From NCBI GenBank assembly GCA_964463175.1, contig CAYXBJ010000092.1, forward strand, positions 70,931 to 134,930: a stretch of DNA of 64,000 nucleotides. The letters are read 5' to 3'. Position numbers and translations under genes: made by a program. The notes under the pieces are model-generated. The model saw only the letters and a list, made by a program, of their open reading frames with translations, ran no database searches and was not told the origin of the DNA. Numbering within the stretch: position 1 is the stretch's first letter; every line of letters begins with the position of its first letter. This stretch comes from an uncultured bacterium. GTDB taxonomy: Bacteria; Methylomirabilota; Methylomirabilia; Rokubacteriales; DASRDR01. Positions 7,190 to 27,106 of the stretch are shown here, one piece after another.

Positions 7190-7750
7190 ATGGCGAGCGG
7201 CGATCCGGCGCGGACGGCCAGCCTGGCGCGCTTCTTCGAGCGCGTCGTGCGTCAGGCCCTCGGGGATCTGCGCCTCGGCGGCCCGGCCGAAGGCGCCTAC
7301 CTCGCCCAGCTCCTCTCGCGATTCGCGCGCACCGAGGAGCTCTACGCGATCCGGGACGCCGCCGGCCGGCCCCTCGACTCGGTCGCGGGGCTGCTCATCG
7401 AGGCCGAGCGGGCCTGGGACTTCCAGGCGCCGGATTTCGATCCGTTCCGGGAGCGTCGCATCCGCCAACACGTGGGGGATTACGCGCTGTTCATGACCGG
7501 CCTGTTCCGGGAGCACGTCGAGCGACGGGCCGGCGCCACCTACTACGTCCGCCAGGGGCAGCGGGCGTACCAGGCCGTGGCCGACTTCGAGCGCTCCGCC
7601 CTCCGGCCGGAAGCCGGCCTGTTCGCCGCCCTGGCCGCGGGCTTCGAGCGCTACGCCGCCGCCCTCGGCTACCTGAAGCGCGTCTACTTCCGCCCCGCCG
7701 AGTCGCCCCCGGCCCTCCAGCCCGTGCTCCGGCTCCTGACCCAATGGTAG
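7190..7750 (+). CDS. hypothetical protein
   Basis: Internal ATG (MASGDPART...) of track ORF 6989..7750. Non-low-complexity composition. Stop overlaps the next gene start (ATGGTAG). Confidence 0.45.
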   Translation: MASGDPARTASLARFFERVVRQALGDLRLGGPAEGAYLAQLLSRFARTEELYAIRDAAGRPLDSVAGLLIEAERAWDFQAPDFDPFRERRIRQHVGDYALFMTGLFREHVERRAGATYYVRQGQRAYQAVADFERSALRPEAGLFAALAAGFERYAAALGYLKRVYFRPAESPPALQPVLRLLTQW

Positions 7751-8955
7751 CGGCGGCCCTGGAGGCCCTGGTGGGCGGCGAGCCCACGGACGAGACCGTG
7801 GAGGCCGCCCTCGCGACGATCCCGACCGACGAGCTCGAGCCTGCGCTCCGCTGGCTCGCCAAGGAGCACGGGGCCGCGGCCCTCCCGATCCTCCGCCGCT
7901 GCCTGGCGAGCCGTCCGGAGCGCGCGGTCGCGGCCGCGCAGGCGCTCGGGACGCTCCCCCGACCCGAGGCGGCCGAGGTGCTCGAGGCCGCGGAAGCCCG
8001 CGCGACGGCCAAGGTCGTGCGCACCGCGGCCCGGCGGGCCCTCTACCGGCTCCGCCAGGCCGGCATCGACCCCCCGCCCGCCGCGCCGCCGGCGGTTGCG
8101 CCGCGCATCGGGCTCGGCGAGGCGTGGATGTCCGCGGTCGATGGCACCGGCGGCCGGGGGCTCTGGCTCACCCTCACCGGACCGTACGGCGAGCGCACCC
8201 TGCTCGCCGCGGTCCTCTCGGACGAGAGCGGGCTCCTGGATTTCTCGGCCGGCGCGATCGCCAAGAAGCGGGTCGCGGAGCGCCTCCGGGCTGTCCAGGC
8301 CGAGAGCCCGCTCCCCTGGGTGGCCGTGCCGCCCCGCTGGGCGTGGGCGACGCTCGTCGAGGCGGCGGAGCGCGCCCGTGCGGCGGGCGGCACCGTGCCC
8401 GCGGAGCTCGACCACTGGATCGCGCGGCTCGGGGCCGCGGGACCGGAGCCGGCACCGATCCATGCGCGGTTGCCGGCCGCCCTCCTCGCGGATCCGGCGC
8501 TGCTCGACGGGTCGGCGGCGCTCCTCGATCTTCCCGAGCTCACGGGCTGGTTCCTGGATCCGGCGAGCGTGGCGAGCGAGTCCGTGGAGTGGCTCCAGGC
8601 GCGCGAGAGCCGGCTGGTCGTCAGCGACCAGATCAAGGCGGAGCGGCTCGCCGCGCTCGTCGACCGGATCATCGAGACGCGCTTCGACGCGGTGACCCGC
8701 CGGCGCTGGCAGGGTCGCCTGGACGAGCAGGCCTACGTGCTGCTCGCGCTGGGGCGCCCGGCGGAGGCGGCCCGCGCCGTCGCGGTCGCGCGGGCCCTCG
8801 CCGATCCGGAGGCCCGGCTCACGCGTCTGCCCTTCCTCCGCGCCTTGGTCGAGCGGAGCCTCGAGATCGCCGGTGAAGTGGCCACGGGCCAGCTGTCCGC
8901 CGAGGTGGCGAGCCGCACGCCCCGCGCGCCCGTGGCGCCGGCCCGTACCGGTTAG
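7744..8955 (+). CDS. hypothetical protein with HEAT/PBS-lyase-like N-terminal repeats
   Basis: Start MVAAALEAL within track ORF 7030..8955. 403 aa, alpha-helical repeat-like N-terminus. Translationally coupled to flanking genes. Confidence 0.45.
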   Translation: MVAAALEALVGGEPTDETVEAALATIPTDELEPALRWLAKEHGAAALPILRRCLASRPERAVAAAQALGTLPRPEAAEVLEAAEARATAKVVRTAARRALYRLRQAGIDPPPAAPPAVAPRIGLGEAWMSAVDGTGGRGLWLTLTGPYGERTLLAAVLSDESGLLDFSAGAIAKKRVAERLRAVQAESPLPWVAVPPRWAWATLVEAAERARAAGGTVPAELDHWIARLGAAGPEPAPIHARLPAALLADPALLDGSAALLDLPELTGWFLDPASVASESVEWLQARESRLVVSDQIKAERLAALVDRIIETRFDAVTRRRWQGRLDEQAYVLLALGRPAEAARAVAVARALADPEARLTRLPFLRALVERSLEIAGEVATGQLSAEVASRTPRAPVAPARTG

Positions 8956-9966: not shown

Positions 9967-10251
9967 GTGACCGGCAAGGTCATCCCCTTCCCGTCCCGCG
10001 CGCCCGAGCCCGAGGACGACAGCGGGTTCGAGGAGCTGACCCGCGTGCGCGGCCAGGCGGAGGCCCTCGTTGTCCGCGGTCTTCTCGAAGCCCACGGCAT
10101 CGAGGTGATCCTGCGCACGCACGTCGCGCCCTCCGTCCATCCGTTCTCCGTCGGCGATCAGGGGGCGGTCCAGGTCCTCGTTCGTCGGGAGGCGCTGGCG
10201 CAGAGCCGCCGGCTCCTGGCCGGCGCCACGCCCGGCCCGGCGGGCTTCTAG
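9967..10251 (+). CDS. DUF2007-like small protein (putative signal-transducing domain)
   Basis: GTG start. About 94 aa with a hydrophobic periodicity of the type L..V...EA..V..LLE..GI...L; part of track ORF 9652..10251. Confidence 0.4.
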   Translation: MTGKVIPFPSRAPEPEDDSGFEELTRVRGQAEALVVRGLLEAHGIEVILRTHVAPSVHPFSVGDQGAVQVLVRREALAQSRRLLAGATPGPAGF

Positions 10252-10281
10252 CGGGCCGCGGGCCGCCACCGAGGGGAGCGC

Positions 10282-10905
10282 GTGAATCGCGAGGGCTGCA
10301 CGCCGGCTACGCGGGACGCCACATCTCGCGGGGCCGGAACTCACCTGACTCGATTGCGCCACGGCCCCGCTCGCTTCGCGCGGACCGTCGCCGCCATCGC
10401 GTCGGCGGCATGGGCCCTCTCCGGCCCCGCGGCCCTGGCCGATGACGACGCGGACCGGAAGATCGCCGAGTCTGCGCTACACGAAGCCCGTGCCGTGCTC
10501 GACCAGGAGCTGTTGGGGCACTACGACCTCGTCCGGCTAACTGTCGAGCACGGCGAGGAGCTGCCGGAGCGGCGTGCCCTCGGCCACGACTACGGGCTCG
10601 CGAGAGTCACGCTCGCCTTCTCGGCCCGCAGAAATGCCACGAGACACCCGGGGCTGAATCCGCGCCTGTTCGAGCCGGGCAGCGCGATGTGTCAGGGGTG
10701 GCTGTACTTGCACTGCGGGGTGCCGGTCGGGCACGTGTTCGACGGCCGGATGGAGCTCGTGCTGGCTCTCGACGGGCAGGGGGCCTGGCGCGCGGTGTCG
10801 CCGCACTGGCGCTCGAGACGACAGTACCCGCTGGACGGGTACCTGCTCCTGGACGGACGCGAGCCGGACGGCTACGTGCGGTTTCCCCAGCAGCCGGCGC
10901 CCTGA
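10282..10905 (+). CDS. hypothetical secreted protein
   Basis: 207 aa. Signal-peptide-like region TVAAIASAAWALSGPAALA. No recognised domain. Confidence 0.45.
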   Translation: MNREGCTPATRDATSRGAGTHLTRLRHGPARFARTVAAIASAAWALSGPAALADDDADRKIAESALHEARAVLDQELLGHYDLVRLTVEHGEELPERRALGHDYGLARVTLAFSARRNATRHPGLNPRLFEPGSAMCQGWLYLHCGVPVGHVFDGRMELVLALDGQGAWRAVSPHWRSRRQYPLDGYLLLDGREPDGYVRFPQQPAP

Positions 10906-10945
10906 GCGGCGCGCCCGCCGGTGGCGGCCACGGCCGCCGAGCGCG

Positions 10946-11848
10946 CTAGCGGCCCGGCACGGCGTCGAGCGTCCGCACCAGCACCTCGAGCGCTGTCTCC
11001 ACTGCAGCCAGCGCCGCCGGCTCGAGGGTCTCGGGCGCGTCGCCCGTCGTGTGGTAGGTCGTGAAGGGCGGCGGCCGGCGCGCGGGCGGCACGAGGATGC
11101 CGCGCACGCCGCCGTAGATGAAGGCGCGTAACGGCTCCATCGACGCTCGCGGGATCGCGGTCAGCCCCACGCCCGGGATGCCGCGGTCGGCGAACGGCCG
11201 GTGATCGCTCCCGAAGAAGGGCACCGGCTCGGCGAGGTGATACGTCTCGTCCCGCCGATAGCCGAGGGCCTCCATCGTCGCGACCCAGGCCCGGACGAGC
11301 GGCGTGGCCTCGAGGGCCGGCGTCACGTCCCACAGGGCGAGGCTGTCGCCGATCCCGCAGAGCTCGAGGCTCACGACGCCGACGAGGGATCGCGCCAGCG
11401 CGGCGGGCTCGTTGCGCCGGACGTAGACGCGCGATCCCAGCATCGCGCGCTCCTCGCCCCCGAAGAATCCGAGCCGCACCCGGAGCCGGCCCGGCGGGCG
11501 GGCCGCGAGCCGCAGGCCGAGCGCCCGCAGAATGCCCACCGAGGCCGCGTTGTCGTTGGCGCCGGGGCTTCCCGGCACGGCGTCGTGGTGCGCGGCGAGG
11601 ACCAGCGTCCGCGGGCCGGGGCCGAGGTCCACGACGAGGTTCACGCCCGCGCCCTCGATGGTCCGGTAGGGCTGGCGCTCGACGGGAAGGCCCGCCGCGC
11701 GGAGCACCGCCTCGGTGAGCCGCCCGCGCTCGCGGTTGGAGCGGCCCGCGAAGAGCTCCGCCAGATCCCGCGGAGTCGGCATCGGCAGCGCGTAGTAGGC
11801 CGCGAGGTCGAGCCCCGGCAGTCGCGGCGGCCCCCGGCGCCGATTCAT
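10946..11848 (-). CDS. M28 family metallopeptidase (aminopeptidase)
   Basis: Internal ATG (MNRRRGPP) of the 453-aa track ORF. Conserved HHDAV, NDNASG and FFGGEE metal-ligand motifs of M28 peptidases. Confidence 0.75.
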   Translation of the reverse strand: MNRRRGPPRLPGLDLAAYYALPMPTPRDLAELFAGRSNRERGRLTEAVLRAAGLPVERQPYRTIEGAGVNLVVDLGPGPRTLVLAAHHDAVPGSPGANDNAASVGILRALGLRLAARPPGRLRVRLGFFGGEERAMLGSRVYVRRNEPAALARSLVGVVSLELCGIGDSLALWDVTPALEATPLVRAWVATMEALGYRRDETYHLAEPVPFFGSDHRPFADRGIPGVGLTAIPRASMEPLRAFIYGGVRGILVPPARRPPPFTTYHTTGDAPETLEPAALAAVETALEVLVRTLDAVPGR

Positions 11849-11928
11849 GAGCCGCGCCGCCGTGACGTTCAGCGCGCCGCCGACGACGCGGCGCAGCTCC
11901 CGCCGCCAGCGTCGCGCGCGCTCCGACG

Positions 11929-12723
11929 TCACGCCGGGGCCGCGGCGAGACTGAACGGCGGCAGGGCGAGCAGACGCGTGGCGTTCGCCGTCGTCGCCGC
12001 CGCCACGGTCTCCGCCGGCACGCCCAGGAGCTCGGCCACGCGCGCGGCCGTCACCGGCAGGTAGGCCGGCTCGTTGCGCTGGCCCCGCCAGGGCTGCGGC
12101 GGGAGGTACGGACAGTCCGTCTCGATCACGAGCCGGTCGAGCGGCAAGACCCGCACGACCTCGGCGAGGCGCCGGGCGCTCGGGTACGTCACCGGGCCGG
12201 CGATCGAGATCAGGAGCCCGAGATCGATCCCACGGCGCGCCACGGCGAGGTCGCCCGAGAAGCAGTGGAGGATCCCGCCGACGGCGTCCACGCCCTCGGC
12301 CGCACACACCTCGAGGAGATCCGCGTGCGCCTCGCGGCAGTGCAGCAGCACGGGCTTCCGGACCGCGCGCGCGAGCTGGAGCTGGGCGACGAGCGCCGCG
12401 CGCTGGGCGGGCCTCGGCGAGTGATCGCGGTAGTAGTCGAGCCCGATCTCACCGATCGCCACGACCCGCGGGGCGCGCGCCAGTGTCGCGATCCGCGCGA
12501 GGGCCGTCGCGTCGGCCGCGCTGGCGTCGTGCGGATGGATCCCCACCGCGGCGTAGATGTCGGGCTCCGCAGCGGCGAGCGCCACCGCGGCCTCCGCGGT
12601 CGGAACGTCCGTCCCGATGTTCAGGAAGCCGGCCACGCCGGCGGCCCGCGCCCGCGCGATGACCGCGGCCCGGTCGGCGTCGAACGCCGGATCGTGGAGA
12701 TGGGCGTGCGTGTCGACGAGCAC
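11929..12723 (-). CDS. tatD: TatD family metal-dependent hydrolase (DNase)
   Basis: C-terminal 265 aa of the 1180-aa artefact ORF: VDTHAHL, GEIGLDY and HCFSG motifs of TatD/YcfH. Probable GTG start at 12723. Confidence 0.85.
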   Translation of the reverse strand: MLVDTHAHLHDPAFDADRAAVIARARAAGVAGFLNIGTDVPTAEAAVALAAAEPDIYAAVGIHPHDASAADATALARIATLARAPRVVAIGEIGLDYYRDHSPRPAQRAALVAQLQLARAVRKPVLLHCREAHADLLEVCAAEGVDAVGGILHCFSGDLAVARRGIDLGLLISIAGPVTYPSARRLAEVVRVLPLDRLVIETDCPYLPPQPWRGQRNEPAYLPVTAARVAELLGVPAETVAAATTANATRLLALPPFSLAAAPA

Positions 12724-12725
12724 CG

Positions 12726-13760
12726 TCAGCCCTCCACCCGGAAGCGCAGGCGGCCGATCAGCTGGCCGGAGGCGGTCATCACGTCCACCGTCCAGCGGCC
12801 GCGAGCGTCGGGCGGGAAGTCGGTCTTCCGCGAGTAGGTGCGGAAGCCGCCGGGCCGGCCGCCGTGCACCGGCGTGGCGAGCTTGACCGTCGAGACGACA
12901 CGCCCCTCGTGCCGCCACCAGTGCTCGACAGCCTGGAGGAGCGGCGCCGGCGCCGCCACCGGCGTGAACGCCGTCAGCCCGCCCCAGGCCTGGAGCTCGT
13001 CCATCGTGACGCGGGCCACCGGCTCGACGGGCTCGAGATCGCTCACCGCGCGGGCGAGCGTCGGCCGCACCAGGCTCACCGGGGCGGGCGGCACCAGCGG
13101 GCGGGCGATCCAGGCCACGCCGACGGCGAGCACGGCGATCGTGCCGGCGCGCCCCGCCGCCGGACCCCAGCGCCCCGCGCGCTCGAAGAAGGTCGGCGTG
13201 AGTCCAAGCGCGCCGAGCGCGGCGCTCCAGAGCACCGCGACGGCCGGCGGCACGCCGACCAGCGGGAGCGCGACGTTCAGTCCGGCGAAGAGCGAGAAGC
13301 CGAAGAAGGCCAGGCCGAGCCACGGCCGCGGATGCACGATCGCCCGGTACCAGGGATCGACCGTGGTCAGGAGCGCGGCCGCGGTGAGGACCCCGAAGAA
13401 GACGACGGTGATGCCGTCGAAGGTCGTGCTCGCGAAGTAGCCGGGGAGCACGAACAACAGGAGCCCGTGGTAGAGGGTCTGGATCGTGTAGTCGCCCGCC
13501 CACACGACCAGATGGCGGCCGCCGGCGAGCAGCGCTTCGCGCGTCTGGCTGAGCACCGCGAAGAGAAGCCAGAGCACGACGACGTAGCCGATGATCCAGC
13601 CGACGTGCGGCACCCCACGCCGGAAGATGAGGAGGGTCACGAGACCCGAGGCCAGCGACGCGAGCGAGATCCCCCAGCGCCGGAGGAACGCCCGCCAGGC
13701 GCCGCCGTCCACGAGCGCGCTCGTCCGCTGCCGGAGAAACGGGTCCGCCGAGCTCGGCAC
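12726..13760 (-). CDS. hypothetical integral membrane protein
   Basis: 344 aa. About 8 TM helices in the N-terminal 230 aa plus a soluble C-terminal domain. Sits between metG and tatD. Confidence 0.55.
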   Translation of the reverse strand: MPSSADPFLRQRTSALVDGGAWRAFLRRWGISLASLASGLVTLLIFRRGVPHVGWIIGYVVVLWLLFAVLSQTREALLAGGRHLVVWAGDYTIQTLYHGLLLFVLPGYFASTTFDGITVVFFGVLTAAALLTTVDPWYRAIVHPRPWLGLAFFGFSLFAGLNVALPLVGVPPAVAVLWSAALGALGLTPTFFERAGRWGPAAGRAGTIAVLAVGVAWIARPLVPPAPVSLVRPTLARAVSDLEPVEPVARVTMDELQAWGGLTAFTPVAAPAPLLQAVEHWWRHEGRVVSTVKLATPVHGGRPGGFRTYSRKTDFPPDARGRWTVDVMTASGQLIGRLRFRVEG

Positions 13761-18300: not shown

Positions 18301-19443
18301 TCACCCGCGCGCGGGAGGTGCCCCCAGGATCGGAAACACCAGCCGCTCGAGCTGCGCCACCTGGCGCTCGGCGAACTCGCGCGCCGGGCGCGTCGCCTCG
18401 AGCGGCAGGACGACCGCCTCGTCCCACAGGGTCCGCCGCCCCCGGAGATACGGCGCGGCGTCGACGACGAAGGCCGGGGGGAGCTCGGCAGGAAGCGTCA
18501 CCCCGTTCATGAGCGCCCAGGCCGCCGTCCACGCCCGGGCGACGTTGGACAGGTCGTAGCCCCCGCCACCGAGCGCGACGACCCGCGGGGCGAGCGCGAG
18601 GATCCGCCGCACCGCCTCCGCGAACCCGTTCACCGAGAGCGCGAGATGCGTCAAGGGATCCGTCCGGTGGCTGTCGATGCCGAGCTGGGCGACGACGACG
18701 TCCGCGCCGAAGGCGCGGAGCACCGGGGGAACGACCGCGTCGAACGCGTCGAGGTACACCGCATCGTCGGTGTAGGGATTGAGCGGCAGGTTCACCGCGT
18801 AGCCGCGGCCCGCGCCTTCGCCGATCTCCTCGACCGCGCCGGTCCCCGGGAAGAGCCGGTCGCCGCGCTCGTGCGTGGAGATCGTGAGCACGTCGGCGCT
18901 CCGATAGAACGCCGCCTGCACGCCGTCCCCGTGATGGGCGTCGATGTCGACATAGGCGACGCGGAGCCCGTGGTGCCGGAGCGTCAGGATCGCGAGGACC
19001 GCATCGTTCAGGTAGCAGAACCCCGACGCCCGGTCCGGCATCGCATGGTGGAGGCCCCCGGCGAAGTTGAACGCCCGCGCCGCGTCGCCCCGCGCCACCA
19101 GCTCCGCGGCGAGGATCGAGCCCCCGCAGGCGAGCGCCGAGGCCTCGTAGACCCCGGGCCAGATCGGGTTGTCGCCGGGACCGAGCCCGTAGCGGTACGC
19201 GTGGGGCACGGGCGCGCCGGCGCCGGCGGCGCGGAGGACGTCGAGGTAGTCCTCGGCGTGGAACTCCCGGATCGCCGCGTCGGACGCCGGCGCCGGCGTG
19301 AGCACCTGGGCATCGGGCAGGCGCGTGAGCCCGTAGCCATCCATGAGGGCGAACGTGAGCCCGAGCCGCTCCATGCGGAGCGGGTGCTCTGGCCCGTAGT
19401 CGAACCGCTTGTAGGCGTCCGAGTGAATCAGGGCCGTCTTCAT
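18301..19443 (-). CDS. histone deacetylase family protein (AcuC/acetoin utilisation-type)
   Basis: 380 aa. HDAC catalytic motifs GGLHHA, DIDAHHGDG and GGGGY. Confidence 0.8.
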   Translation of the reverse strand: MKTALIHSDAYKRFDYGPEHPLRMERLGLTFALMDGYGLTRLPDAQVLTPAPASDAAIREFHAEDYLDVLRAAGAGAPVPHAYRYGLGPGDNPIWPGVYEASALACGGSILAAELVARGDAARAFNFAGGLHHAMPDRASGFCYLNDAVLAILTLRHHGLRVAYVDIDAHHGDGVQAAFYRSADVLTISTHERGDRLFPGTGAVEEIGEGAGRGYAVNLPLNPYTDDAVYLDAFDAVVPPVLRAFGADVVVAQLGIDSHRTDPLTHLALSVNGFAEAVRRILALAPRVVALGGGGYDLSNVARAWTAAWALMNGVTLPAELPPAFVVDAAPYLRGRRTLWDEAVVLPLEATRPAREFAERQVAQLERLVFPILGAPPARG

Positions 19444-19874
19444 CGCCGCATCCAGTGGCCGCTCCGACCGCCGGACTTCTCGAGGAGGCAGAGGTCCGTG
19501 AGCCGCATCCCGCGATCGATGGCCTTCACCATGTCGTAGATGGCGAGCCCCGCGCCGGCGGCCGCGGTGAGGGCCTCCATCTCGACGCCGGTCTTGTCCA
19601 CCGTGCGCACCGCCGTTTCGACGTGGACCGCCGAGCGCGCGCGGTCCAGCGTGAACGACACGTCGACCCCGGTGAGCCGGAGCGGATGACAGAGGGGGAT
19701 GAGCTCCGCCGTCCGCTTGGCGGCCATGATCCCGGCCAGCCGGGCGACGCCGAGCACGTCGCCCTTGACGATCTCGCCCCGCCGGATGGCGCGGAGCGTC
19801 GCCGGACGGAGGCGGAGCGTGACCCGGGCCCGGGCCTCGCGCACCGTGTCGGGCTTGGCCGAGACATCAACCAT
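19440..19874 (-). CDS. moaC: cyclic pyranopterin monophosphate synthase MoaC
   Basis: MVDVSAKPDTVREA...GVEMEALTAA...EKSGGRSG matches E. coli MoaC throughout. True N-terminus probably extends ~13 aa upstream (LSHVDRHGKAR aligns to MoaC residues 4-14) from a non-ATG start. The stop overlaps the HDAC start (ATGA). Confidence 0.85.
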   Translation of the reverse strand: MVDVSAKPDTVREARARVTLRLRPATLRAIRRGEIVKGDVLGVARLAGIMAAKRTAELIPLCHPLRLTGVDVSFTLDRARSAVHVETAVRTVDKTGVEMEALTAAAGAGLAIYDMVKAIDRGMRLTDLCLLEKSGGRSGHWMRR

Positions 19875-20066
19875 CCGCGCCTTGCCGTGGCGGTCGACAT
19901 GACTCAGGCCGGCCAGGCCAGGCTCGGGCGCACCGCGGCGCGCGCGATCAGGCGAGGGCGAGGATCGAGAGCGGGCCCCCGGGCGGCGGGAGGCGGACAC
20001 ACGGCGCCCCGCGCGGGCCCGCGTGCCCGCGGACGCGCGGGGCATGGGCCGAGACGGTCGCCGGCC

Positions 20067-20303
20067 TCAGGCCGACATCGAGGCGGCAGCCTGGTTCTGC
20101 TGGATCAGCGTCTCCATGCGGTCTTTGCCGATGAGCTTGAGCTTCTTCAGCTCGCTCTCCCGCCACTGCTGCTCGGCGGAGAGGAACGGGCGGGCTTGGA
20201 GCTCCGCCAGCTCCTCCTCATGCGCCTGATGCTCGGCGCGCAACTGACGGAACTCCGCGTTGAGCTCGGTCAGGCGCTGGACGACGGCGTCGCGATCGGG
20301 CAT
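20067..20303 (-). CDS. DUF465 (YdcH-like) small protein
   Basis: 78 aa from the internal ATG. LSAEQQWRESELKKLKLIGKDRMETLI matches the DUF465 signature. Confidence 0.55.
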   Translation of the reverse strand: MPDRDAVVQRLTELNAEFRQLRAEHQAHEEELAELQARPFLSAEQQWRESELKKLKLIGKDRMETLIQQNQAAASMSA

Positions 20304-20565: not shown

Positions 20566-21663
20566 TTACCGACCGTCCCCGCGCCGGACCAGGTGGACGG
20601 CGCTCGCCTTGAACGTCACTTCCACCGGCACGCCCGGGGCGAGAGCCAGCGCCGCGACGGCCGGACGCGTCACGAGCGCCGTGAGCGGCACCCCGCAATC
20701 GACGCCGATCCGCCAGAGCGCGCCGAGCGGCGTGACGCGCACGACGCGACCGGGCAGGCGATTCTGGGCGCTCGTCGGCCCGGAGGCTTGGGGCCCTCCG
20801 AGGGTGAGGTCCTCGGGCCGGAGGCCGACCAGCACGCGCTCCCCCGGCCGCGCGTCCCCGACAGCGGTCACGCGCAGCGGGCCCGCCTCGACCGTGATCA
20901 CGCCATCGGTCTGCGCCACGACCCGCCCGGGTAAGAGATTCTCGACCCCGACGAAGCGGGCCACCGCCTCGGTGGCGGGCGCGCCGAAGACGCGCTCGGG
21001 CGGCCCCAGCTCGGCGAGCCGGCCCGCGAGCAGGACCGCGACGCGATCGCCGAGGCGGAGTGCCTCGGCCCGGTCGTGGGTGACCAGGACCGTCGTGGTC
21101 CGCGTCGCGGCGAGGAGCCGGCCCAGGTCGTCGAGCAGCGCCTCCCGCGTCGGGGCGTCCAGCGCCGCGAAGGGCTCGTCGAGGAAGAGCACCTCCGGCA
21201 TGGCCGCGAAGGCCCGGGCCAGACTGGTTCGCTGGGCCTCGCCCCCCGAGAGCCGGTCCACCGGGCGGTCCGCGAGCGCGTCGATCCCGAGCCGGCCGAG
21301 CCATTCGCGCGCGCGGCGGTCAGCCTCCAGACGGGCCACTCCACGGAGCCGCGACGCGAGGCGCGCGTTGTACAGGACGGAGCCCCGGCAGAGCATCGCC
21401 TCCTGAAACACGCAGGCCATCCGCCGCCGCCAGGCAAGCCGCTCGGTCTCGGTCTGCGGCACCGCCCCCTGGAATCGCACCGTCCCCCGGCTCGGGCGGG
21501 CGAGCAGCGCCAGCACCCGAAGCAGCGTGGACTTGCCCGCGCCGTTCGGGCCGATGACCGCCAGCACCTCGCCGGGGAGCACGTCGAGCGCGGGCACGTC
21601 GAGGACGATCTGCCCGTCGTATCGCATCTCGACGCCCGCCGCCTCGACGACCGGGCCGCTCAC
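20566..21663 (-). CDS. molybdate/tungstate ABC transporter ATP-binding protein with C-terminal TOBE domain (ModC-like, copy 2)
   Basis: GTG start chosen so that Walker A (GPNGAGKST) lies ~37 aa from the N-terminus. LSGGEAQR signature. C-terminal TOBE-like region. Confidence 0.8.
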   Translation of the reverse strand: MSGPVVEAAGVEMRYDGQIVLDVPALDVLPGEVLAVIGPNGAGKSTLLRVLALLARPSRGTVRFQGAVPQTETERLAWRRRMACVFQEAMLCRGSVLYNARLASRLRGVARLEADRRAREWLGRLGIDALADRPVDRLSGGEAQRTSLARAFAAMPEVLFLDEPFAALDAPTREALLDDLGRLLAATRTTTVLVTHDRAEALRLGDRVAVLLAGRLAELGPPERVFGAPATEAVARFVGVENLLPGRVVAQTDGVITVEAGPLRVTAVGDARPGERVLVGLRPEDLTLGGPQASGPTSAQNRLPGRVVRVTPLGALWRIGVDCGVPLTALVTRPAVAALALAPGVPVEVTFKASAVHLVRRGDGR

Positions 21664-21718
21664 GGGACCCCCGTCTTCCGGCGGCCTTCGGCCACCGGCG
21701 CCGCAAGGACCGGCGCGC

Positions 21719-22840
21719 TCACACGCCCGCCAGCACCTGGAGCGCCCCGCGATGCATGGACACTTCCCACTCGTGATCCCGCGCGATGTCCAGGATCTCG
21801 TACACGAGATGCGGGACTTCGATCTCGAGGTCGTAAGCACCCTGGCTCGGCGAACCCGGCGCGGCGAGCCGGAAGAGGAGCGTCCACGACGTGCCGTGGT
21901 CGATCGACTCGACGACCGCCCCGCGCAGGAGATTCATGTGGTGGGCCGGATCGAGCCCGGCCCGGTCCTTCCGGATCAGCCGCACGTGCTCGGGGCGGAC
22001 CATGAACGTGACCGCGCTCCCCGGCGCCGCGAGGAACGGTGTGGTCGGCGAGTTGACGGCCTCGACGGTGTGCCCGCGCCAGGCGATCTCGACGCGATCC
22101 GGCGCGCTCTTGACCACGGTGCCGTGGACGACGTTGCGGAGCCCGATGAGCCGGGCCACCCGCTCGGATCCGGGACGCCCGAGCACGTCGGCCTTCGGTC
22201 CGGCCTGCACGACCCGGCCGCCCTCGTAGATGACCAAGCGGTCCCCGAGCTGGTACGCCTCGGCGAGGTCGTGCGTCACCAGGACGACCGTGCGGCGCAG
22301 CCCCACGATCAGGCTCCGCAGCTCCCCGCCGAGCTGCCGCCGCAACGGGGCGTCGAGCGCCGACAGCGGCTCGTCCAGGAGGAGGACCGCCGGATCGGGC
22401 GCGATCGCGCGGCCGAGGGCGACGCGCTGCTGCTGGCCCCCCGAGAGCTCGCGCGGGTCGCGCCCGGCCAGCGGTTCCAGCCCGAGCTGCGCGAGGATCT
22501 CGGCCGTCCGGCGCCGGCGCTCGGGGCCCGGCCGGTCGCGCAAGCCGAACGCCACGTTCTCCGCGACCGTGAGGTGCGGAAAGAGTGCGTACCCCTGGAA
22601 GACGTAGCCGAGACGGCGCGCCTGCGGCGGCAGCTCGATTCCGGCGGCGGTGTCGTCGAACACCCGCTCGTTGACCACCACGCGGGCCACGTCGGGTCGC
22701 GTCAGCCCGGCGAGACACTGGAGCGTGAGGCTCTTCCCGGCGCCGGAGGGACCGAACAGGGTCACGACCTCGTCGCCCGCGGACCACGCGACGTCGAGCG
22801 TGAAGCCGGGCAGGGCCTTCCGGAGGCTGACGTCGATCAC
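21719..22840 (-). CDS. molybdate/tungstate ABC transporter ATP-binding protein with C-terminal TOBE domain (ModC-like, copy 1)
   Basis: 373 aa. Walker A GPSGAGKS, LSGGQQQRVALGRA, Walker B LLLDEPLSALD. ~130-aa C-terminal TOBE-like domain. Confidence 0.85.
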   Translation of the reverse strand: MIDVSLRKALPGFTLDVAWSAGDEVVTLFGPSGAGKSLTLQCLAGLTRPDVARVVVNERVFDDTAAGIELPPQARRLGYVFQGYALFPHLTVAENVAFGLRDRPGPERRRRTAEILAQLGLEPLAGRDPRELSGGQQQRVALGRAIAPDPAVLLLDEPLSALDAPLRRQLGGELRSLIVGLRRTVVLVTHDLAEAYQLGDRLVIYEGGRVVQAGPKADVLGRPGSERVARLIGLRNVVHGTVVKSAPDRVEIAWRGHTVEAVNSPTTPFLAAPGSAVTFMVRPEHVRLIRKDRAGLDPAHHMNLLRGAVVESIDHGTSWTLLFRLAAPGSPSQGAYDLEIEVPHLVYEILDIARDHEWEVSMHRGALQVLAGV

Positions 22841-22847
22841 GGCCGTC

Positions 22848-23528
22848 TCAGAGCCGGCTGCCCAGCCGGCTCGCCAGCACGACCACGGCGCACGACAGCG
22901 TCGTCAGGACGAGCACCAGAACGCGCGCCTCCGCGATCTCCCCGGTCGAGACCGCGGTGTAGATGGCGAGCGGCACGGTCGCCGTGCGTCCCGGGATGTT
23001 CCCCGCCAGCATGAGCGTCGCGCCGAACTCGCCCAGCGCGCGGGCGAAGGCGAGGACCAGGCCGGCCACGATGCCGCGCCGAGCGAGCGGCAGGGTCACC
23101 TCGAGCGCCGTGCGCCATTCGGAACGGCCGAGGACGAAGGCCGCGCGCTCCAGATCCGGGTTGACGCTCTCGATGGCGGCCCGCGCCGGTCGGACGAGGA
23201 GCGGTAGCGCCATCACCGCCGCCGCAACGACCGCCGCGTACCAAGTGAACGGCAGGCTCCAGCCGGTCAGAGTGTAGAGGGGGCCGCCCAGCCAGCCCCG
23301 GCGGCCGAGGAGCACGATCAGGTAGTAGCCCGTCACCGTGGGCGGGAGCACGAGCGGCAGCATCACGAGGACATCCAGCGCCTGCCGCCCCCAGAAGCGT
23401 CGCTTGGCGAGCAGGTACGCGAGCGGGATGCCCACGAGCGCGTCCGCGAGCGTCGCCAGCAGGGATACGCGAAGCGACAGCCACAGGGCGCTGGTCGAGG
23501 CCTCCGGCATCGGGAGCGACTGTAGCAC
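22848..23528 (-). CDS. molybdate/tungstate ABC transporter permease (ModB/TupB-like)
   Basis: 226 aa. EAA loop ARALGEFGATLMLAGNIPG typical of ModB-family permeases. Confidence 0.85.
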   Translation of the reverse strand: MLQSLPMPEASTSALWLSLRVSLLATLADALVGIPLAYLLAKRRFWGRQALDVLVMLPLVLPPTVTGYYLIVLLGRRGWLGGPLYTLTGWSLPFTWYAAVVAAAVMALPLLVRPARAAIESVNPDLERAAFVLGRSEWRTALEVTLPLARRGIVAGLVLAFARALGEFGATLMLAGNIPGRTATVPLAIYTAVSTGEIAEARVLVLVLTTLSCAVVVLASRLGSRL

Positions 23529-23561
23529 GCGGGTCCGGGGACCCCCGGGCCCGCCCGGGCG

Positions 23562-24257
23562 CTAGGTGCGGCCCCGCTGCTGGATCCAGGTGAGCGCACA
23601 GTTCACCAGGAACGTGAGGGCGAGCAGGATGACTGACAGCGCGATCGCCACGTCGAAGTTCCCCTTGCTCGTCTCGAGGACCGTGGCCGTCGTCAGCACC
23701 CGGGTCTGCGCCCGGATGTTCCCGCCGACCATCAGCGAGGCGCCGACCTCCGAGATCACCGCGCCGAAGCCGGCCATCAGAGCCGCGAGCAGCGGGAGCC
23801 GCGCCTCGCGGATCAGGACCCCGAGCAGCTGGAGCCGGGAGGCGCCGAGGGCCTGCACCTGGAGCCGGAAGCGCTCCGGGATCTGCTGGACCGCCGCCAG
23901 CGTGAGCCCGGTGACGACCGGGACGGCGATGACGAACTGGGCGATCACGATCGCCGTCGGCGTGTAGAGCAGCTCCAGCGCCCCCAGCGGGCCGCTCCGC
24001 CAGAGGAGGATCGACACGAAGAGGCCCACGACGACCGGCGGCAGCCCCATCCCGGTGTTCACGAGGGCCACGACGAGGCCGCGCCCGGGAAACCGCACGA
24101 GCGCGAGAACGGTCCCGAGCGGCATGCCGGCGAAAAGGGACAGCACGGTCGCCGCCCCCGACACCTTGAGCGAGAGCCAGGTGACGCCGAGAAGCTCGGG
24201 GTCGGCGGCCGCCAGAAGGGCCCCCGCCTGGACCAGCCCCTCGCCGATCAGTCCCAC
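23562..24257 (-). CDS. molybdate/tungstate ABC transporter permease (second, ModB/TupB-like)
   Basis: 231 aa. EAA-like loop AVISEVGASLMVGGNI. Paralogous to but distinct from the adjacent permease. Confidence 0.85.
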   Translation of the reverse strand: MGLIGEGLVQAGALLAAADPELLGVTWLSLKVSGAATVLSLFAGMPLGTVLALVRFPGRGLVVALVNTGMGLPPVVVGLFVSILLWRSGPLGALELLYTPTAIVIAQFVIAVPVVTGLTLAAVQQIPERFRLQVQALGASRLQLLGVLIREARLPLLAALMAGFGAVISEVGASLMVGGNIRAQTRVLTTATVLETSKGNFDVAIALSVILLALTFLVNCALTWIQQRGRT

Positions 24258-24310
24258 GCGGGCACCGCAATCGGGGACGCTACGCTCGGCCTCCGATCAC
24301 CTGCGGCGGG

Positions 24311-25120
24311 TCACCGTGACCCGGGAAGCGGCGGCTGGAAGCCGAGCCGGCCGAGCACCGCCTGACCCTCCGCTCCGGTTACGAGGTCCACGAAAGCCCG
24401 CGCGAGCGACGTCTGGCTCGAAGCGGCCACGACCGCGATGGGGTACACGACTGGGGAATAGGTATCCTCCCCCGGCCGGAAGGCCTGCCGGACGCGCGTC
24501 CCCGCCGTCGGCACATCCGTCGCGTAGACGAACCCCGCGTCCACTTCTCCGCGCGCGACGTACTCCAGAACCTGGCGGACGTTCTCGGCGAAGACGAGCT
24601 TCGGGCCGAGCGCATCCCAGGCGCCGGTGGCCTGCAGGCTCTGCTGGGCATACTGCCCTGCCGGCACCGTCTTCGGGTTGCCGAGGGCCACGCGGGTCAC
24701 CCGCGGCGTGAGCAGGTCGGCCACCGCCGTCAGGTCCGGGCCGGCGTCCGCCGGCGTGACGACGACCAGCACGTTCCGCGCAAACGCGCGGCGGGTGTCC
24801 GGGAGGATCAGCTTCTTCTGTTCGAGCTCGTCCATCTGGCGCGTCGCCGCCGAGACGAACACGTCGATCGGCGCTCCGGCCTCGATCTGCTTCTGGAGAT
24901 CGCCCGACGCGCCGAAGTTGTACCGCATGGTCACGCCCGGCTGGCGCCCGGCGAAGGTCCGGCCGAGGCTCTCGATCGCCTCCTTCATGCTGATGGCGAC
25001 GGACAGCGTCAGCTCCTCCGCCGATGCGGGCGTGACCACGCCCACGGCAAGCGCCACGGCGACGACGAGGACCGTCCCGGAGAGACGGCCCCGGCGCCTG
25101 GATCGGCGAGCGGGCGTCAC
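24311..25120 (-). CDS. modA: molybdate ABC transporter substrate-binding protein
   Basis: Lies within the 531-aa track ORF. GTG start preceded by GGAGG. Signal peptide then a ModA-like ...FGASGDLQKQIEAGAPIDVFVSAA motif. Start overlaps the tupA stop (GTGA). Confidence 0.8.
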   Translation of the reverse strand: MTPARRSRRRGRLSGTVLVVAVALAVGVVTPASAEELTLSVAISMKEAIESLGRTFAGRQPGVTMRYNFGASGDLQKQIEAGAPIDVFVSAATRQMDELEQKKLILPDTRRAFARNVLVVVTPADAGPDLTAVADLLTPRVTRVALGNPKTVPAGQYAQQSLQATGAWDALGPKLVFAENVRQVLEYVARGEVDAGFVYATDVPTAGTRVRQAFRPGEDTYSPVVYPIAVVAASSQTSLARAFVDLVTGAEGQAVLGRLGFQPPLPGSR

Positions 25121-25965
25121 TTCCCCACCTCCTCTTCCCGCTGGCCGGCGATCGGCACGAACAGCGCCTGTCCGTACTTGTCCACCCCGAAGGTGCGGAT
25201 CGTCGCCTGCACCACCGGCGACAGCATGAAGTCGGCGAACGACTTGCCGGCGGCCGCATTCACACGCGGCCCGTTGGCCGGGTTGACCTCCATGACGGAG
25301 TAGATGTTGAGGAGCGGCCGGTCCTTCTCCACGAGGATCGGCAGGTCGATCCGCTTCTGGAAGGCGAGATACGTGCCCCGGTCGGTCAGCGTGTAGGCCC
25401 GACGGTCGTTCGCGATGCCGAGCGTCTGTCCCATCCCCTGGCCGGACTCGAGGTACCACGCCCCCTTCGGCTCGATCCCGGCCTGCTTCCAGAGTGCCTG
25501 CTCGAGGAGATGGGTCCCGGACTTGTCCCCGCGGGAGACGAAACGGGACTCCCTGGCAGCGATCATCCGGAGGGCCTCGACCGCGGTCATCCCTTTGATC
25601 TTCGCCGCGTCTTCGGCGGGGCCGATCACGACGAAGTCGTTGTACATGACGAGGCGCCGGTTCAGCATCTTGCCCTCGTCGACGTACTTCTTCTCGAGCG
25701 CCGGCGCGTGGGCCAGCGTGACGTCCGCCTCGCCGCGCGCGGCCAAAGCGAGCGCCTGGCCCGTCCCCACCGAGATCGTCTTGACGGAGTAGCCGGTGGC
25801 CTGCTCGAACATCGGAACGAGGACATCGAGAAGCCCCGAGTCCTGCGTGCTCGTCGTCGTCGAGAGGATGAGCGTCCGGGAGGTCGGGCCGGGCGTCTGG
25901 CCCCACGCGAGCCCGGCGCCGAGAAGGAGCATCAGGGTGACCAGGACGAGTCGACGTCGCGTCAT
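25117..25965 (-). CDS. tupA: tungstate ABC transporter substrate-binding protein
   Basis: 282 aa. Signal peptide. Contains the TTTS anion-binding motif (LILSTTTSTQDSGLLD) characteristic of TupA/WtpA-family proteins. Confidence 0.85.
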   Translation of the reverse strand: MTRRRLVLVTLMLLLGAGLAWGQTPGPTSRTLILSTTTSTQDSGLLDVLVPMFEQATGYSVKTISVGTGQALALAARGEADVTLAHAPALEKKYVDEGKMLNRRLVMYNDFVVIGPAEDAAKIKGMTAVEALRMIAARESRFVSRGDKSGTHLLEQALWKQAGIEPKGAWYLESGQGMGQTLGIANDRRAYTLTDRGTYLAFQKRIDLPILVEKDRPLLNIYSVMEVNPANGPRVNAAAGKSFADFMLSPVVQATIRTFGVDKYGQALFVPIAGQREEEVGK

Positions 25966-26133
25966 GCCGTGGCGTCCTCCGGTGACGGGTCTAGGGCCGG
26001 GCCGGCCACTCGGCCGCCCGGGGCCGCCGGGCAGCGCGGCCGGGCCGGGCCAGGATCGGCCAGCCCCGGACAGTATGACCGATCCCGGGCGCCGGCGCGG
26101 ACCACCGGCGGCGCGCGGCGAATGGGACTCGGG

Positions 26134-27054
26134 TCAGGCCACCTCCCCCAGCACGCGGCCGGTCTGCTTCCAGTCGTAGCCGCCTAGGCGCTCGAGTCCC
26201 TGGCGGAACCGCTCCGACCGGATCGCCTCCAAGAGCGTCTGGAGGGGGGGCTGGAAGAAGGTGTCCTTCGGGACGACGAGGTCGAGCCGCTCGCGGGCGA
26301 GGGGGACGAAGCCCAGGCTCAGAGCCAGCGCCACCCCGTGAGTCCCGACCCCAACGTCGGCCTCGCCGCGCAGCACCCGGAGGGCCACCGCCCAGTGCGT
26401 CGAGACCTCCTCTCGATAGCCCACGACCCCCGCGTGCTCGACCCCCGCGGCGGCCAGGGCTTGGTCGGTGAACGCGCGCGTCGCGGAGTCCGGCTGACGG
26501 TTCACGAAGCGGAGGCCGCGCCGGAGGTCGCCCACGCCTTCGACCTTCCGGGGATTGCCCGTCCAGACCAGGAGCCCGAGCTCGCGGACGAACAGGTTGA
26601 CCACCACGGCGGGGCGCTCAGGCAGGTGGCGCGGGATGTACGCGAGGTCCGGCCCGCCTGACGGGGAGGCGACGTGCGCGCACACCGCGACATCGGCTCG
26701 GCCCTGCGCCAGCGCCGCCAGACCCCCGAGGCTTCCGACGGTGGCGATGAAGAGCACCGGGTGGCCCGCCTGCTCGCGGAGGGCATCCGGCAGGTTCTGG
26801 AGCGCGGGGTCGTCGCTCCCGGCCAGGAAGAGACTGCCGGGCGGCAGCGTCGTGCGCCCGCGGGCCGACCGCTCCCCGCCCCGCTGGCGCGCGCTCGCCT
26901 CGAGCCACTCATCCAGGAGATGCACCGGGAAGAGCCACTTGCCCGTGACTCGGCTCGCCGGAATGCCGCCCCGCTGGGCGAGCAGATACACCGAGCGGGG
27001 GTTGAGGCGGAGATAGCGGGCGGCCTCGGCCACCGTGAGGAAGCGTGGCTCCAT
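26134..27054 (-). CDS. TunR-like transcriptional regulator: excisionase-family HTH fused to a periplasmic-binding-protein-like (COG1910 molybdate-binding) domain
   Basis: N-terminal LTVAEAARYLRLNPRSVYLLAQRGGIPASRVTGKWLF is a MerR/excisionase-type HTH. The remaining ~240 aa are PBP-like. Immediately upstream of the tup/mod operon. The track start at 27093 is TTG, so the ATG at 27054 is preferred. Confidence 0.65.
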   Translation of the reverse strand: MEPRFLTVAEAARYLRLNPRSVYLLAQRGGIPASRVTGKWLFPVHLLDEWLEASARQRGGERSARGRTTLPPGSLFLAGSDDPALQNLPDALREQAGHPVLFIATVGSLGGLAALAQGRADVAVCAHVASPSGGPDLAYIPRHLPERPAVVVNLFVRELGLLVWTGNPRKVEGVGDLRRGLRFVNRQPDSATRAFTDQALAAAGVEHAGVVGYREEVSTHWAVALRVLRGEADVGVGTHGVALALSLGFVPLARERLDLVVPKDTFFQPPLQTLLEAIRSERFRQGLERLGGYDWKQTGRVLGEVA

Positions 27055-27076
27055 TCCGGAGCGCAGCGTAGCATGT

Positions 27077-27106
27077 CGATCAAACTGGATCAAATTAGAT
27101 CAAGGT
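27077..27106. promoter_or_regulatory. three direct GATCAA(A/G) repeats at 10-bp spacing in an AT-rich island, a candidate operator/promoter upstream of the TunR-like gene
   Basis: Sequence gatcaaactg gatcaaatta gatcaaggtg, 23-52 bp upstream of the ATG at 27054. Local GC is far below the ~70% background. Confidence 0.3.

Follow-up and report, generated by a model that had tools for sequence, protein, structure and literature searches.

Interleaved tungstate- and molybdate-type ABC importer genes in a six-gene locus of an uncultured Rokubacteria bacterium

A 64-kb stretch of DNA from an uncultured member of the Rokubacteria (the window; G+C content 73%) carries on its minus strand, from position 25965 to 20566, six open reading frames (ORFs) that encode, in this order, a tungstate-type binding protein (TupA), a molybdate-binding protein (ModA), two permeases (B1, tupB-type, and B2, modB) and two ATPases (C1, modC-like, and C2, tupC). 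The six genes probably specify two separate, conventional type I ATP-binding cassette (ABC) importers whose genes are interleaved. We infer a tungstate pump in which TupA would deliver its ligand to a permease homodimer, (B1)2, powered by (C2)2, and a molybdate pump in which ModA would serve a (B2)2 homodimer powered by (C1)2, the substrates and stoichiometries being part of that proposal. All components are members of known families (TupABC, ModABC), and the peculiarity of the locus lies in its gene order only.

The conclusion that there are two independent transporters is drawn from modular synteny and clade separation, since the unlike subunits of a heteromer should be inherited together. 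The original prediction, which had identified the six minus-strand ORFs correctly, offered two interpretations: a heterodimeric importer fed by two binding proteins, or two transporters in one transcription unit. Comparative evidence backs the second, in that the genes resolve into the modules tupA-B1-C2 and modA-B2-C1, with co-transcription predicted from the gene arrangement. The first finds no support: 21 species have B1 and C2 but neither B2 nor C1. As a result that would speak against it, the original prediction had named the clean clustering of the permease/ATPase pairs as independent modules with an internal promoter between them. The clustering is what was found, B1 and C2 going with tupA, B2 and C1 with modA; as to a promoter, a regulator gene in opposite orientation lies between tupB and modA in several relatives.

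Gene order in related loci

Eighty species-representative loci, mostly from Rokubacteria/Methylomirabilota and Binatia, were fetched via TupA, and each of their ORFs was assigned to the best-matching protein of the window. In 21 of the 80, mostly from Binatia and 'delta' metagenome-assembled genomes (MAGs) but including the Rokubacteria loci L022 and L004, only tupA-B1-C2 is present, so that tupA, tupB and tupC, which in the window are dispersed among mod genes, are inherited there as a three-gene unit. L004 is a close relative of the window and has the same flanking genes, yet it has the plain tupA-B1-C2 arrangement. Co-occurrence of both permeases and both ATPases is not obligatory, as B1 and C2 are found in these 21 loci without B2 and C1. 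The commonest state in Rokubacteria is a nested one, tupA-B1-modA-B2-C1-C2, in which a modABC cassette lies between tupB and tupC; it was found complete in about 26 loci and is also consistent with a number of truncated contigs. The order of the window, tupA-modA-B1-B2-C1-C2, recurs in four loci (L003, L005, L006 and L007) and on two metagenome contigs (L001 and L002). The four loci are the closest relatives of the window, with 79-96% identity per protein, and belong to uncultured Rokubacteria/Methylomirabilota MAGs. An assembly or binning artefact was considered and rejected because the order is the same in two independent read-set assemblies and in these four other species-level MAGs. In a single locus, L060, the two sets of genes stand apart: tupA-B1-C2 is followed by a ModE-like gene and then by B2-C1.

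The junctions between the genes reflect the same modules. tupA is directly adjacent to B1 in 59 of 63 loci and B2 to C1 in 34 of 35; where B1 directly adjoins C2, in 22 loci, every gap is at most 65 nucleotides (nt). Between B1 and modA the spacing is loose: its median is 203 nt and its maximum 4.2 kb. In ten species modA and B2 are of a divergent type, with identities of 37% and 55% where the remaining nested loci have 65% and 77%. The divergent proteins are still ModA and ModB by TIGRFAM, and tupA, B1, C1 and C2 of the same ten species are no more diverged than elsewhere. modA and B2 were replaced jointly without change in B1, C1 and C2; therefore, binding protein and permease were exchanged as a unit.

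Six contigs of the set (L014, L018, L020, L021, L023 and L053), several of them nested, bear the labels Deferrimicrobiaceae, Limnocylindria, Dormiibacterota, Verrucomicrobiia and Nitrosocosmicus. Their TupA identity of about 80% and their Rokubacteria-type flanks accompany labels from other phyla that are probably due to mis-binning (SMAG set). Seventeen loci contain an orphan tupA paralogue in whose vicinity neither a permease nor an ATPase gene was found; in 12 of them at least 4 kb of sequence is available downstream of tupA. The orphans named in Table 1 are 70-78% identical to TupA of the window, lack permease and ATPase genes within 8 kb and lie among unrelated genes (acyl-CoA synthetase, TPR proteins, sensor kinases, FtsH). 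The MAG AR23 has two such loci.

Permeases and binding proteins

The pairwise identities and the phylogeny suggested by the original prediction were determined, the latter with E. coli ModB and ModC as references. In the window, the identity is 34% between the two permeases and 39% between the two ATPases. The tree, computed by alignment and neighbour joining from 62 B1, 35 B2, 34 C1 and 43 C2 sequences and the two E. coli proteins, consists of four clean clades in which B1, B2, C1 and C2 are each monophyletic. Throughout the tree set, no B1 and B2 are more than 38.5% identical, and no C1 and C2 more than 40.0%.

B1 matches NF038017 with 263.7 bits (cutoff 100). Among the specific families its scores fall in the order TupB (165 bits), ModB (95 bits) and WtpB (49 bits), the first of which is below the TupB equivalog cutoff (NF041773, 320 bits). 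Its identity to E. coli ModB is 23-31%. B2 is an equivalog of ModB by the curated model TIGR02141 (235.2 bits, cutoff 182.6), scores 235 bits for ModB versus 57 for TupB, shares 42-50% identity with E. coli ModB and is nearest to it in the tree. When compared with the solved Mod/Wtp permeases, B2 aligns with 3D31_C at 97 bits, whereas B1 is barely alike, at 30-34 bits.

TupA contains the Pfam domain PBP_like_2 (PF12849, 167 bits). Its best NCBIfam match is the TupA family NF041772, at 219 bits and hence below the equivalog cutoff of 400 bits. The TupA structures of G. sulfurreducens and D. alaskensis were retrieved from the PDB with E values of 1.3e-68 (3LR1) and 1e-66 (5MY5). The motif TTTSTQDSGL is present, and FVSRGDKSGTH and YTLTDRGTY align to 5MY5, so that the ligand residues of the TupABC systems are found in the window protein: the TTTS motif, R118, T124 and D170 of D. 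alaskensis TupA are matched by TTTS, SRGD...SGT and TDRGT. The Arg, Thr and Asp residues have been named as ligand residues of the D. alaskensis protein (PMC5517513). Judged by their sequences, TupA and B1 are divergent members of the Tup family rather than non-members, because for each of them Tup is the best-ranked specific family even though the equivalog cutoff is not reached. ModA is an equivalog by the curated model TIGR01256 (200.7 bits, cutoff 62.5) and matches the ModA structures in the PDB, the best being 4KD5 (1.2e-46).

The two ATPases

The Walker A, Q-loop, signature, Walker B and H-loop motifs are intact in both C1 and C2. Many heterodimeric ABC ATPases have one degenerate site. 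The best specific family of C1 is ModC (TIGR02142); the match covers model positions 2-309 of 353 and, at 228.5 bits, lies below the equivalog cutoff of 285. The neighbour-joining tree places C1 closest to ModC of E. coli, and by its context, the adjoining modB in 34 of 35 loci, it is ModC. The C-terminal 144 residues of C1, searched alone, match TOBE_2 only, with 19.2 bits versus a cutoff of 21; no Pfam TOBE domain at or above cutoff was found in C1, and none is annotated in any of 120 C1 relatives, down to 65% identity. An AlphaFold model of C1 (AlphaFold2, 34 homologues; predicted local distance difference test score 87) matches MalK, PotA, CysA and FbpC along the entire chain, with template modelling (TM) scores of 0.74-0.79. 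As modelled, the C-terminal domain is a generic beta regulatory fold of the MalK/PotA/CysA type, without sequence evidence of an oxyanion-binding TOBE. Residues 237-373 are strongly conserved among the 34 homologues and belong to no Pfam family at threshold; W254, R255, R282, R287, K291, H363 and R364, among others, are invariant. The domain may bind a ligand other than via a Mop/TOBE motif.

C2 combines ABC_tran with a TOBE domain (PF03459, 53 bits) and aligns end to end, including the regulatory domain, with ModC of M. acetivorans (3D31_A; 215 bits, residues 20-360 of 365). The plain tupA-B1-C2 operons of 21 species have C2 as their ATPase. Since no TupC model is among the best 25 NCBIfam families listed for the ATPases, C2 is named tupC from its gene context and not from a family model. 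The regulatory domain of C2, which is of the M. acetivorans ModC type, would by homology mediate trans-inhibition and probably shuts the pump when the cytoplasmic oxyanion concentration is high. A homodimeric ModB2C2 architecture and trans-inhibition via the regulatory domain are documented for ModBC of M. acetivorans and A. fulgidus (PMC4245157). The original prediction had assigned TOBE domains for trans-inhibition to both ATPases, which finds support for C2 only.

Organization of the locus and its transcription

The coordinates of the genes are listed in Table 1. The GTG start codon of modA overlaps the stop codon of tupA by 4 nt (GTGA), with GGAGG upstream, and the gene caller placed the same 4-nt overlap on the independent metagenome contigs L001 and L002. 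The further gaps are 53 nt between modA and B1, 33 nt between B1 and B2 (51 nt if B2 starts at an alternative ATG six codons further downstream), 7 nt between B2 and C1, and 55 nt between C1 and C2. The tight tupA/modA and B2/C1 junctions agree with the original prediction. Because all junctions are short (-4 to 55 nt) and on the same strand, the six genes are likely, as far as the sequence tells, to be co-transcribed from a promoter in the 168-nt spacer upstream of tupA.

Table 1. Features of the window and of related loci
Feature	Locus	Positions	Strand	Description
tupA	Window	25117-25965	-	282 amino acids (aa); tungstate-type periplasmic binding protein, signal peptide, TTTS motif
modA	Window	24311-25120	-	269 aa; molybdate-binding protein; TIGR01256
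B1	Window	23562-24257	-	231 aa; tupB-type permease; NF038017
B2	Window	22848-23528	-	226 aa; modB permease; TIGR02141
C1	Window	21719-22840	-	373 aa; modC-like ATPase, divergent MalK-type C-terminal beta domain; ABC_tran
C1, residues 237-373	Window	21719-22140	-	Conserved C-terminal domain
C2	Window	20566-21663	-	365 aa; tupC, ATPase with TOBE regulatory domain; ABC_tran and PF03459
Regulator candidate	Window	26134-27093	-	HTH_17 and PBP_like; start at 27093 (TTG) or 27054 (ATG); 168 nt from tupA
TCGGTCATACTG	Window	26071-26082	-	Motif conserved in the regulator-tupA spacer
DUF465 ORF	Window	20067-20303	-	Next gene downstream of C2, 262 nt away
moaC	Window	19440-20045	-	21 nt after the DUF465 ORF
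DUF465-moaC-histone-deacetylase-family unit	Window	18301-20303	-	Tight unit separate from the six-gene block
mop	L003	10126-10332		69-aa Mop molbindin; in this and the next three loci and 7 others
mop	L005	9594-9800		
mop	L006	9560-9766		
mop	L036	10478-10684		
Third binding protein	L005	7122-7853		PRK03537 ModA class; between regulator and tupA
Third binding protein	L003	~7213-7955		As in L005
FecB/FecCD/ATPase insert	L011	~10540-13470		Between modA-mop and modB
FecB/FecCD/ATPase insert	L036	~10700-13560		As in L011
FecB/FecCD/ATPase insert	L053	~10200-13100		As in L011
ModE-like HTH gene	L060	10665-10976		
ModE-like HTH gene	L008, L016, L019, L020, L053, L058		Opposite	Between tupB and modA
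ModE-like HTH gene	L013, L027, L048, L073, L074, L078 and others			Upstream of tupA
HTH_17-PBP_like gene	L003-L007, L022, L024, L031, L032, L049, L050, L055, L057, L062, L066			Upstream of tupA
Orphan tupA paralogue	L025, L026, L028, L029, L035, L037, L051, L063, L072, L076, L082			

The gene upstream of this spacer encodes an HTH_17 domain (PF12728, 50 bits) joined to a PBP_like domain (PF12727, 183 bits). The latter is weakly similar to TupA and shares with it the Arg and Thr residues of the ligand motif SRGDxSGT. A gene of this kind precedes tupA in the window-like loci and in 10 of the 21 tupABC-only loci. It is found with tupA in two phyla and also accompanies tupABC in Binatia. From its sequence, the protein is a possible candidate for a one-component sensor of tungstate/molybdate oxyanions; a literature search for an HTH_17-PBP_like regulator yielded nothing relevant. 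The window, L001, L004 and L007 share the motif TCGGTCATACTG in the spacer that precedes tupA; in L006 the motif is degenerate. The window contains one exact copy, with no significant enrichment there. The motif is possibly a -10 region or an operator. Among 14 pairs of GC-rich inverted repeats in the spacer none is convincing, and one imperfect palindrome flanks the motif. No match to a molybdenum cofactor riboswitch or another RNA element was obtained from Rfam in the operon region, either at gathering thresholds across the window or at E <= 1 between 19300 and 27400.

Downstream of C2, the DUF465 ORF, moaC and a gene of the histone deacetylase family, which overlaps moaC by 4 nt, form a tight unit that is syntenic with the transporter locus in most Rokubacteria loci. 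moaC had been placed 600 bp downstream in the original prediction; it does lie downstream, but its start is 520 nt past the C2 stop codon, with the DUF465 ORF intervening. A promoter-like sequence, TTGACA-N18-TACAAG, precedes the start of the DUF465 ORF by about 180 nt. The wider surroundings are housekeeping genes (methionyl-tRNA synthetase, thymidylate kinase, BipA, a peptidyl-prolyl isomerase-like ORF). No second tup or mod copy is present in the 64-kb window, and no gene of a molybdenum or tungsten enzyme was identified among the neighbouring ORFs scanned, which are housekeeping genes.

Alternative arrangements

Several observations weigh against two fully separate importers encoded by one operon. 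Of the 35 related loci with modC, nearly all of them Rokubacteria, 32 have tupC immediately after it; the median distance between C1 and C2 is 20 nt, and in L006 and L007 the two genes overlap. This adjacency persists even where an opposite-strand gene separates tupAB from the other genes, which may hint at a functional link between C1 and C2. One locus, L039, has tupA-B1-modA-B2-C1 with no C2 within 4.7 kb downstream, and another, L017, has B2-C1 without modA. L003 and L005 encode three binding proteins for two permeases. The scores of TupA, TupB and ModC all lie below the NCBIfam equivalog cutoffs, and a scan for sigma-70 promoters and intrinsic terminators between 19300 and 27300 returned no sites, although at 73% G+C such a scan is uninformative. 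Some sharing of components, be it ATPases or binding proteins, is conceivable, but nothing in these observations speaks positively for a heteromeric complex.

It is rather unlikely that the genes are adjacent without forming one operon, internal promoters in the 53-nt modA/B1 gap, in the 55-nt C1/C2 gap or within coding sequence dividing them into separate tungstate and molybdate units. In the nested relatives the mod cassette is often equipped with a separate regulator gene and preceded by a long spacer (the 203-nt median given above), hence a promoter of its own. In the window, however, modA overlaps the tupA stop codon, no gap is longer than 55 nt, all genes are on one strand and neither a modE-like nor a mop gene is left. 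The fruitless scan for promoter- and terminator-like sites points the same way, as weak evidence at this G+C content.

A sharing of the ATPases, in which either of them energizes either permease homodimer or C1 and C2 form a heterodimer, would mean that tupC stands behind modC for reasons of function and not of history. Under this arrangement the TOBE domain of C2 would impose oxyanion trans-inhibition on both uptake routes. We consider both propositions improbable. In their favour are the C1-C2 adjacency just described, its persistence in loci where tupAB and modA-B2-C1-C2 are parted by a modE-like gene on the reverse strand, the L039 locus that keeps tupAB with C1 only, and the presence of an MsmX structure among the fold matches of C1. 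MsmX and MsmK are ATPases of sugar systems that serve several importers. Arguing against sharing are the 21 species in which C2 alone serves tupAB and the L060 locus, which splits the pairs into tupABC and modBC. Furthermore, the low identity of C1 and C2 is accompanied by different regulatory domains, and the L039 genome may carry tupC elsewhere.

A single heteromeric importer with B1/B2 permease and C1/C2 ATPase heterodimers that accepts both TupA and ModA is hardly credible: its A-A-B-B-C-C order does resemble the operons of heteromeric importers (oppABCDF is one), the junctions are tight and relatives have extra binding proteins, but 21 species have B1 without B2 and C2 without C1, the order is confined to the clade of the window and derived from the nested A-B-[A-B-C]-C, modA and B2 were replaced as a pair with B1 untouched, B2 is an orthodox ModB as similar to the homodimeric E. 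coli protein as stated above, and both ATPase sites are canonical. We retain two conventional importers with interleaved genes as the probable arrangement.

Comparison with known systems

With the TupABC systems of Eubacterium acidaminophilum, Campylobacter jejuni, Desulfovibrio alaskensis and Geobacter sulfurreducens the locus shares the TupA fold with its TTTS, Arg, Thr and Asp residues, the TupB-type permease B1 and, in sister lineages, the tupA-B1-C2 operon. It differs from them in that mod genes part tupA, tupB and tupC, that the scores stay below the equivalog cutoffs and that C2 is by sequence closest to M. acetivorans ModC. The likeness to ModABC (E. coli; the ModB2C2 structures of A. 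fulgidus and M. acetivorans) consists of ModA and ModB proteins above the TIGRFAM cutoffs and the modB-modC adjacency with its 7-nt gap. Unlike in ModABC, C1 has a MalK/PotA-like beta domain instead of the canonical Mop/TOBE C-terminus, modA is parted from modB by tupB and no full-length ModE is present. The trans-inhibited ModBC of M. acetivorans (PDB 3D31) resembles C2 over its whole length and in its Pfam TOBE domain, and binding of oxyanions by C2 is putative; C2 differs in its tup context. Heteromeric type I importers (MalFGK2, PstSCAB, CysPTWA, OppBCDF) share with the window the superficial feature of two permease genes side by side and, in the case of opp, also two ATPase genes. Their permease pair is always inherited together, whereas the permeases and ATPases of the window each occur without the supposed partner in many related species.

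Several molybdenum and tungsten transporters per genome are common (PMC6147048), and Geobacter is known to have mod and tup clusters that are rearranged (PMC2996986). Literature searches found no account of tup and mod genes nested or interleaved in one operon, nor of molybdenum and tungsten transport in Rokubacteria.

Origin of the gene order

The A-A-B-B-C-C order is derived, young and confined to one clade. Its formation would have started from an ancestral tupA-tupB-tupC operon. A modA-modB-modC cassette, often accompanied by a mop or a modE-like gene, would then have been inserted between tupB and tupC to give the nested form. In the clade of the window, tupB and modA, the latter with or without mop, would have exchanged places, and the loss of mop in the window would have left the present order. 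A single swap of this kind is sufficient to convert A-B-A-B-C-C into A-A-B-B-C-C, because in L003, L005 and L006 a modA-mop block stands before tupB; in the nested form modA, often with mop, follows tupB.

Various additional genes are found in the relatives. The mop gene (TIGR00638, 85.6 bits) follows modA in many of them; neither the window nor L007 has it. Between the regulator gene and tupA, L003 and L005 contain the third binding protein, assigned to the PRK03537 ModA class with 317 bits, above cutoff. L011, L036 and L053 carry a full ABC transporter of the siderophore/B12 type (FecB/FecCD/ATPase) inserted within the mod cassette. In most nested loci the HTH_17-PBP_like gene is replaced by genes for helix-turn-helix (HTH) proteins of about 104 aa that resemble the N-terminal part of ModE (TIGR00637, 54 bits, below cutoff). 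In six to eight loci such a gene in reverse orientation splits tupAB from modA-B2-C1-C2; therefore, tupC is transcribed there with the mod genes and not with tupAB. The window retains no modE-like or mop gene.

Significance

The A-A-B-B-C-C arrangement looks like that of a heteromeric importer, yet it is the result of operon nesting and a local swap, and the subunit composition of a transporter should not be inferred from gene order alone. Rokubacteria of the soil, an abundant uncultured phylum, usually link the uptake of tungsten and molybdenum genetically, next to moaC, and the locus is a hotspot at which binding proteins, mop genes and regulators are exchanged. If the ATPases were shared, this would explain why tupC is located behind modC in 32 of 35 loci, why the two remain adjacent where tupAB is separate and why one species has tupAB with modC only. 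In that case the locus would be a simple natural system in which to study how the uptake of tungsten and that of molybdenum are balanced.

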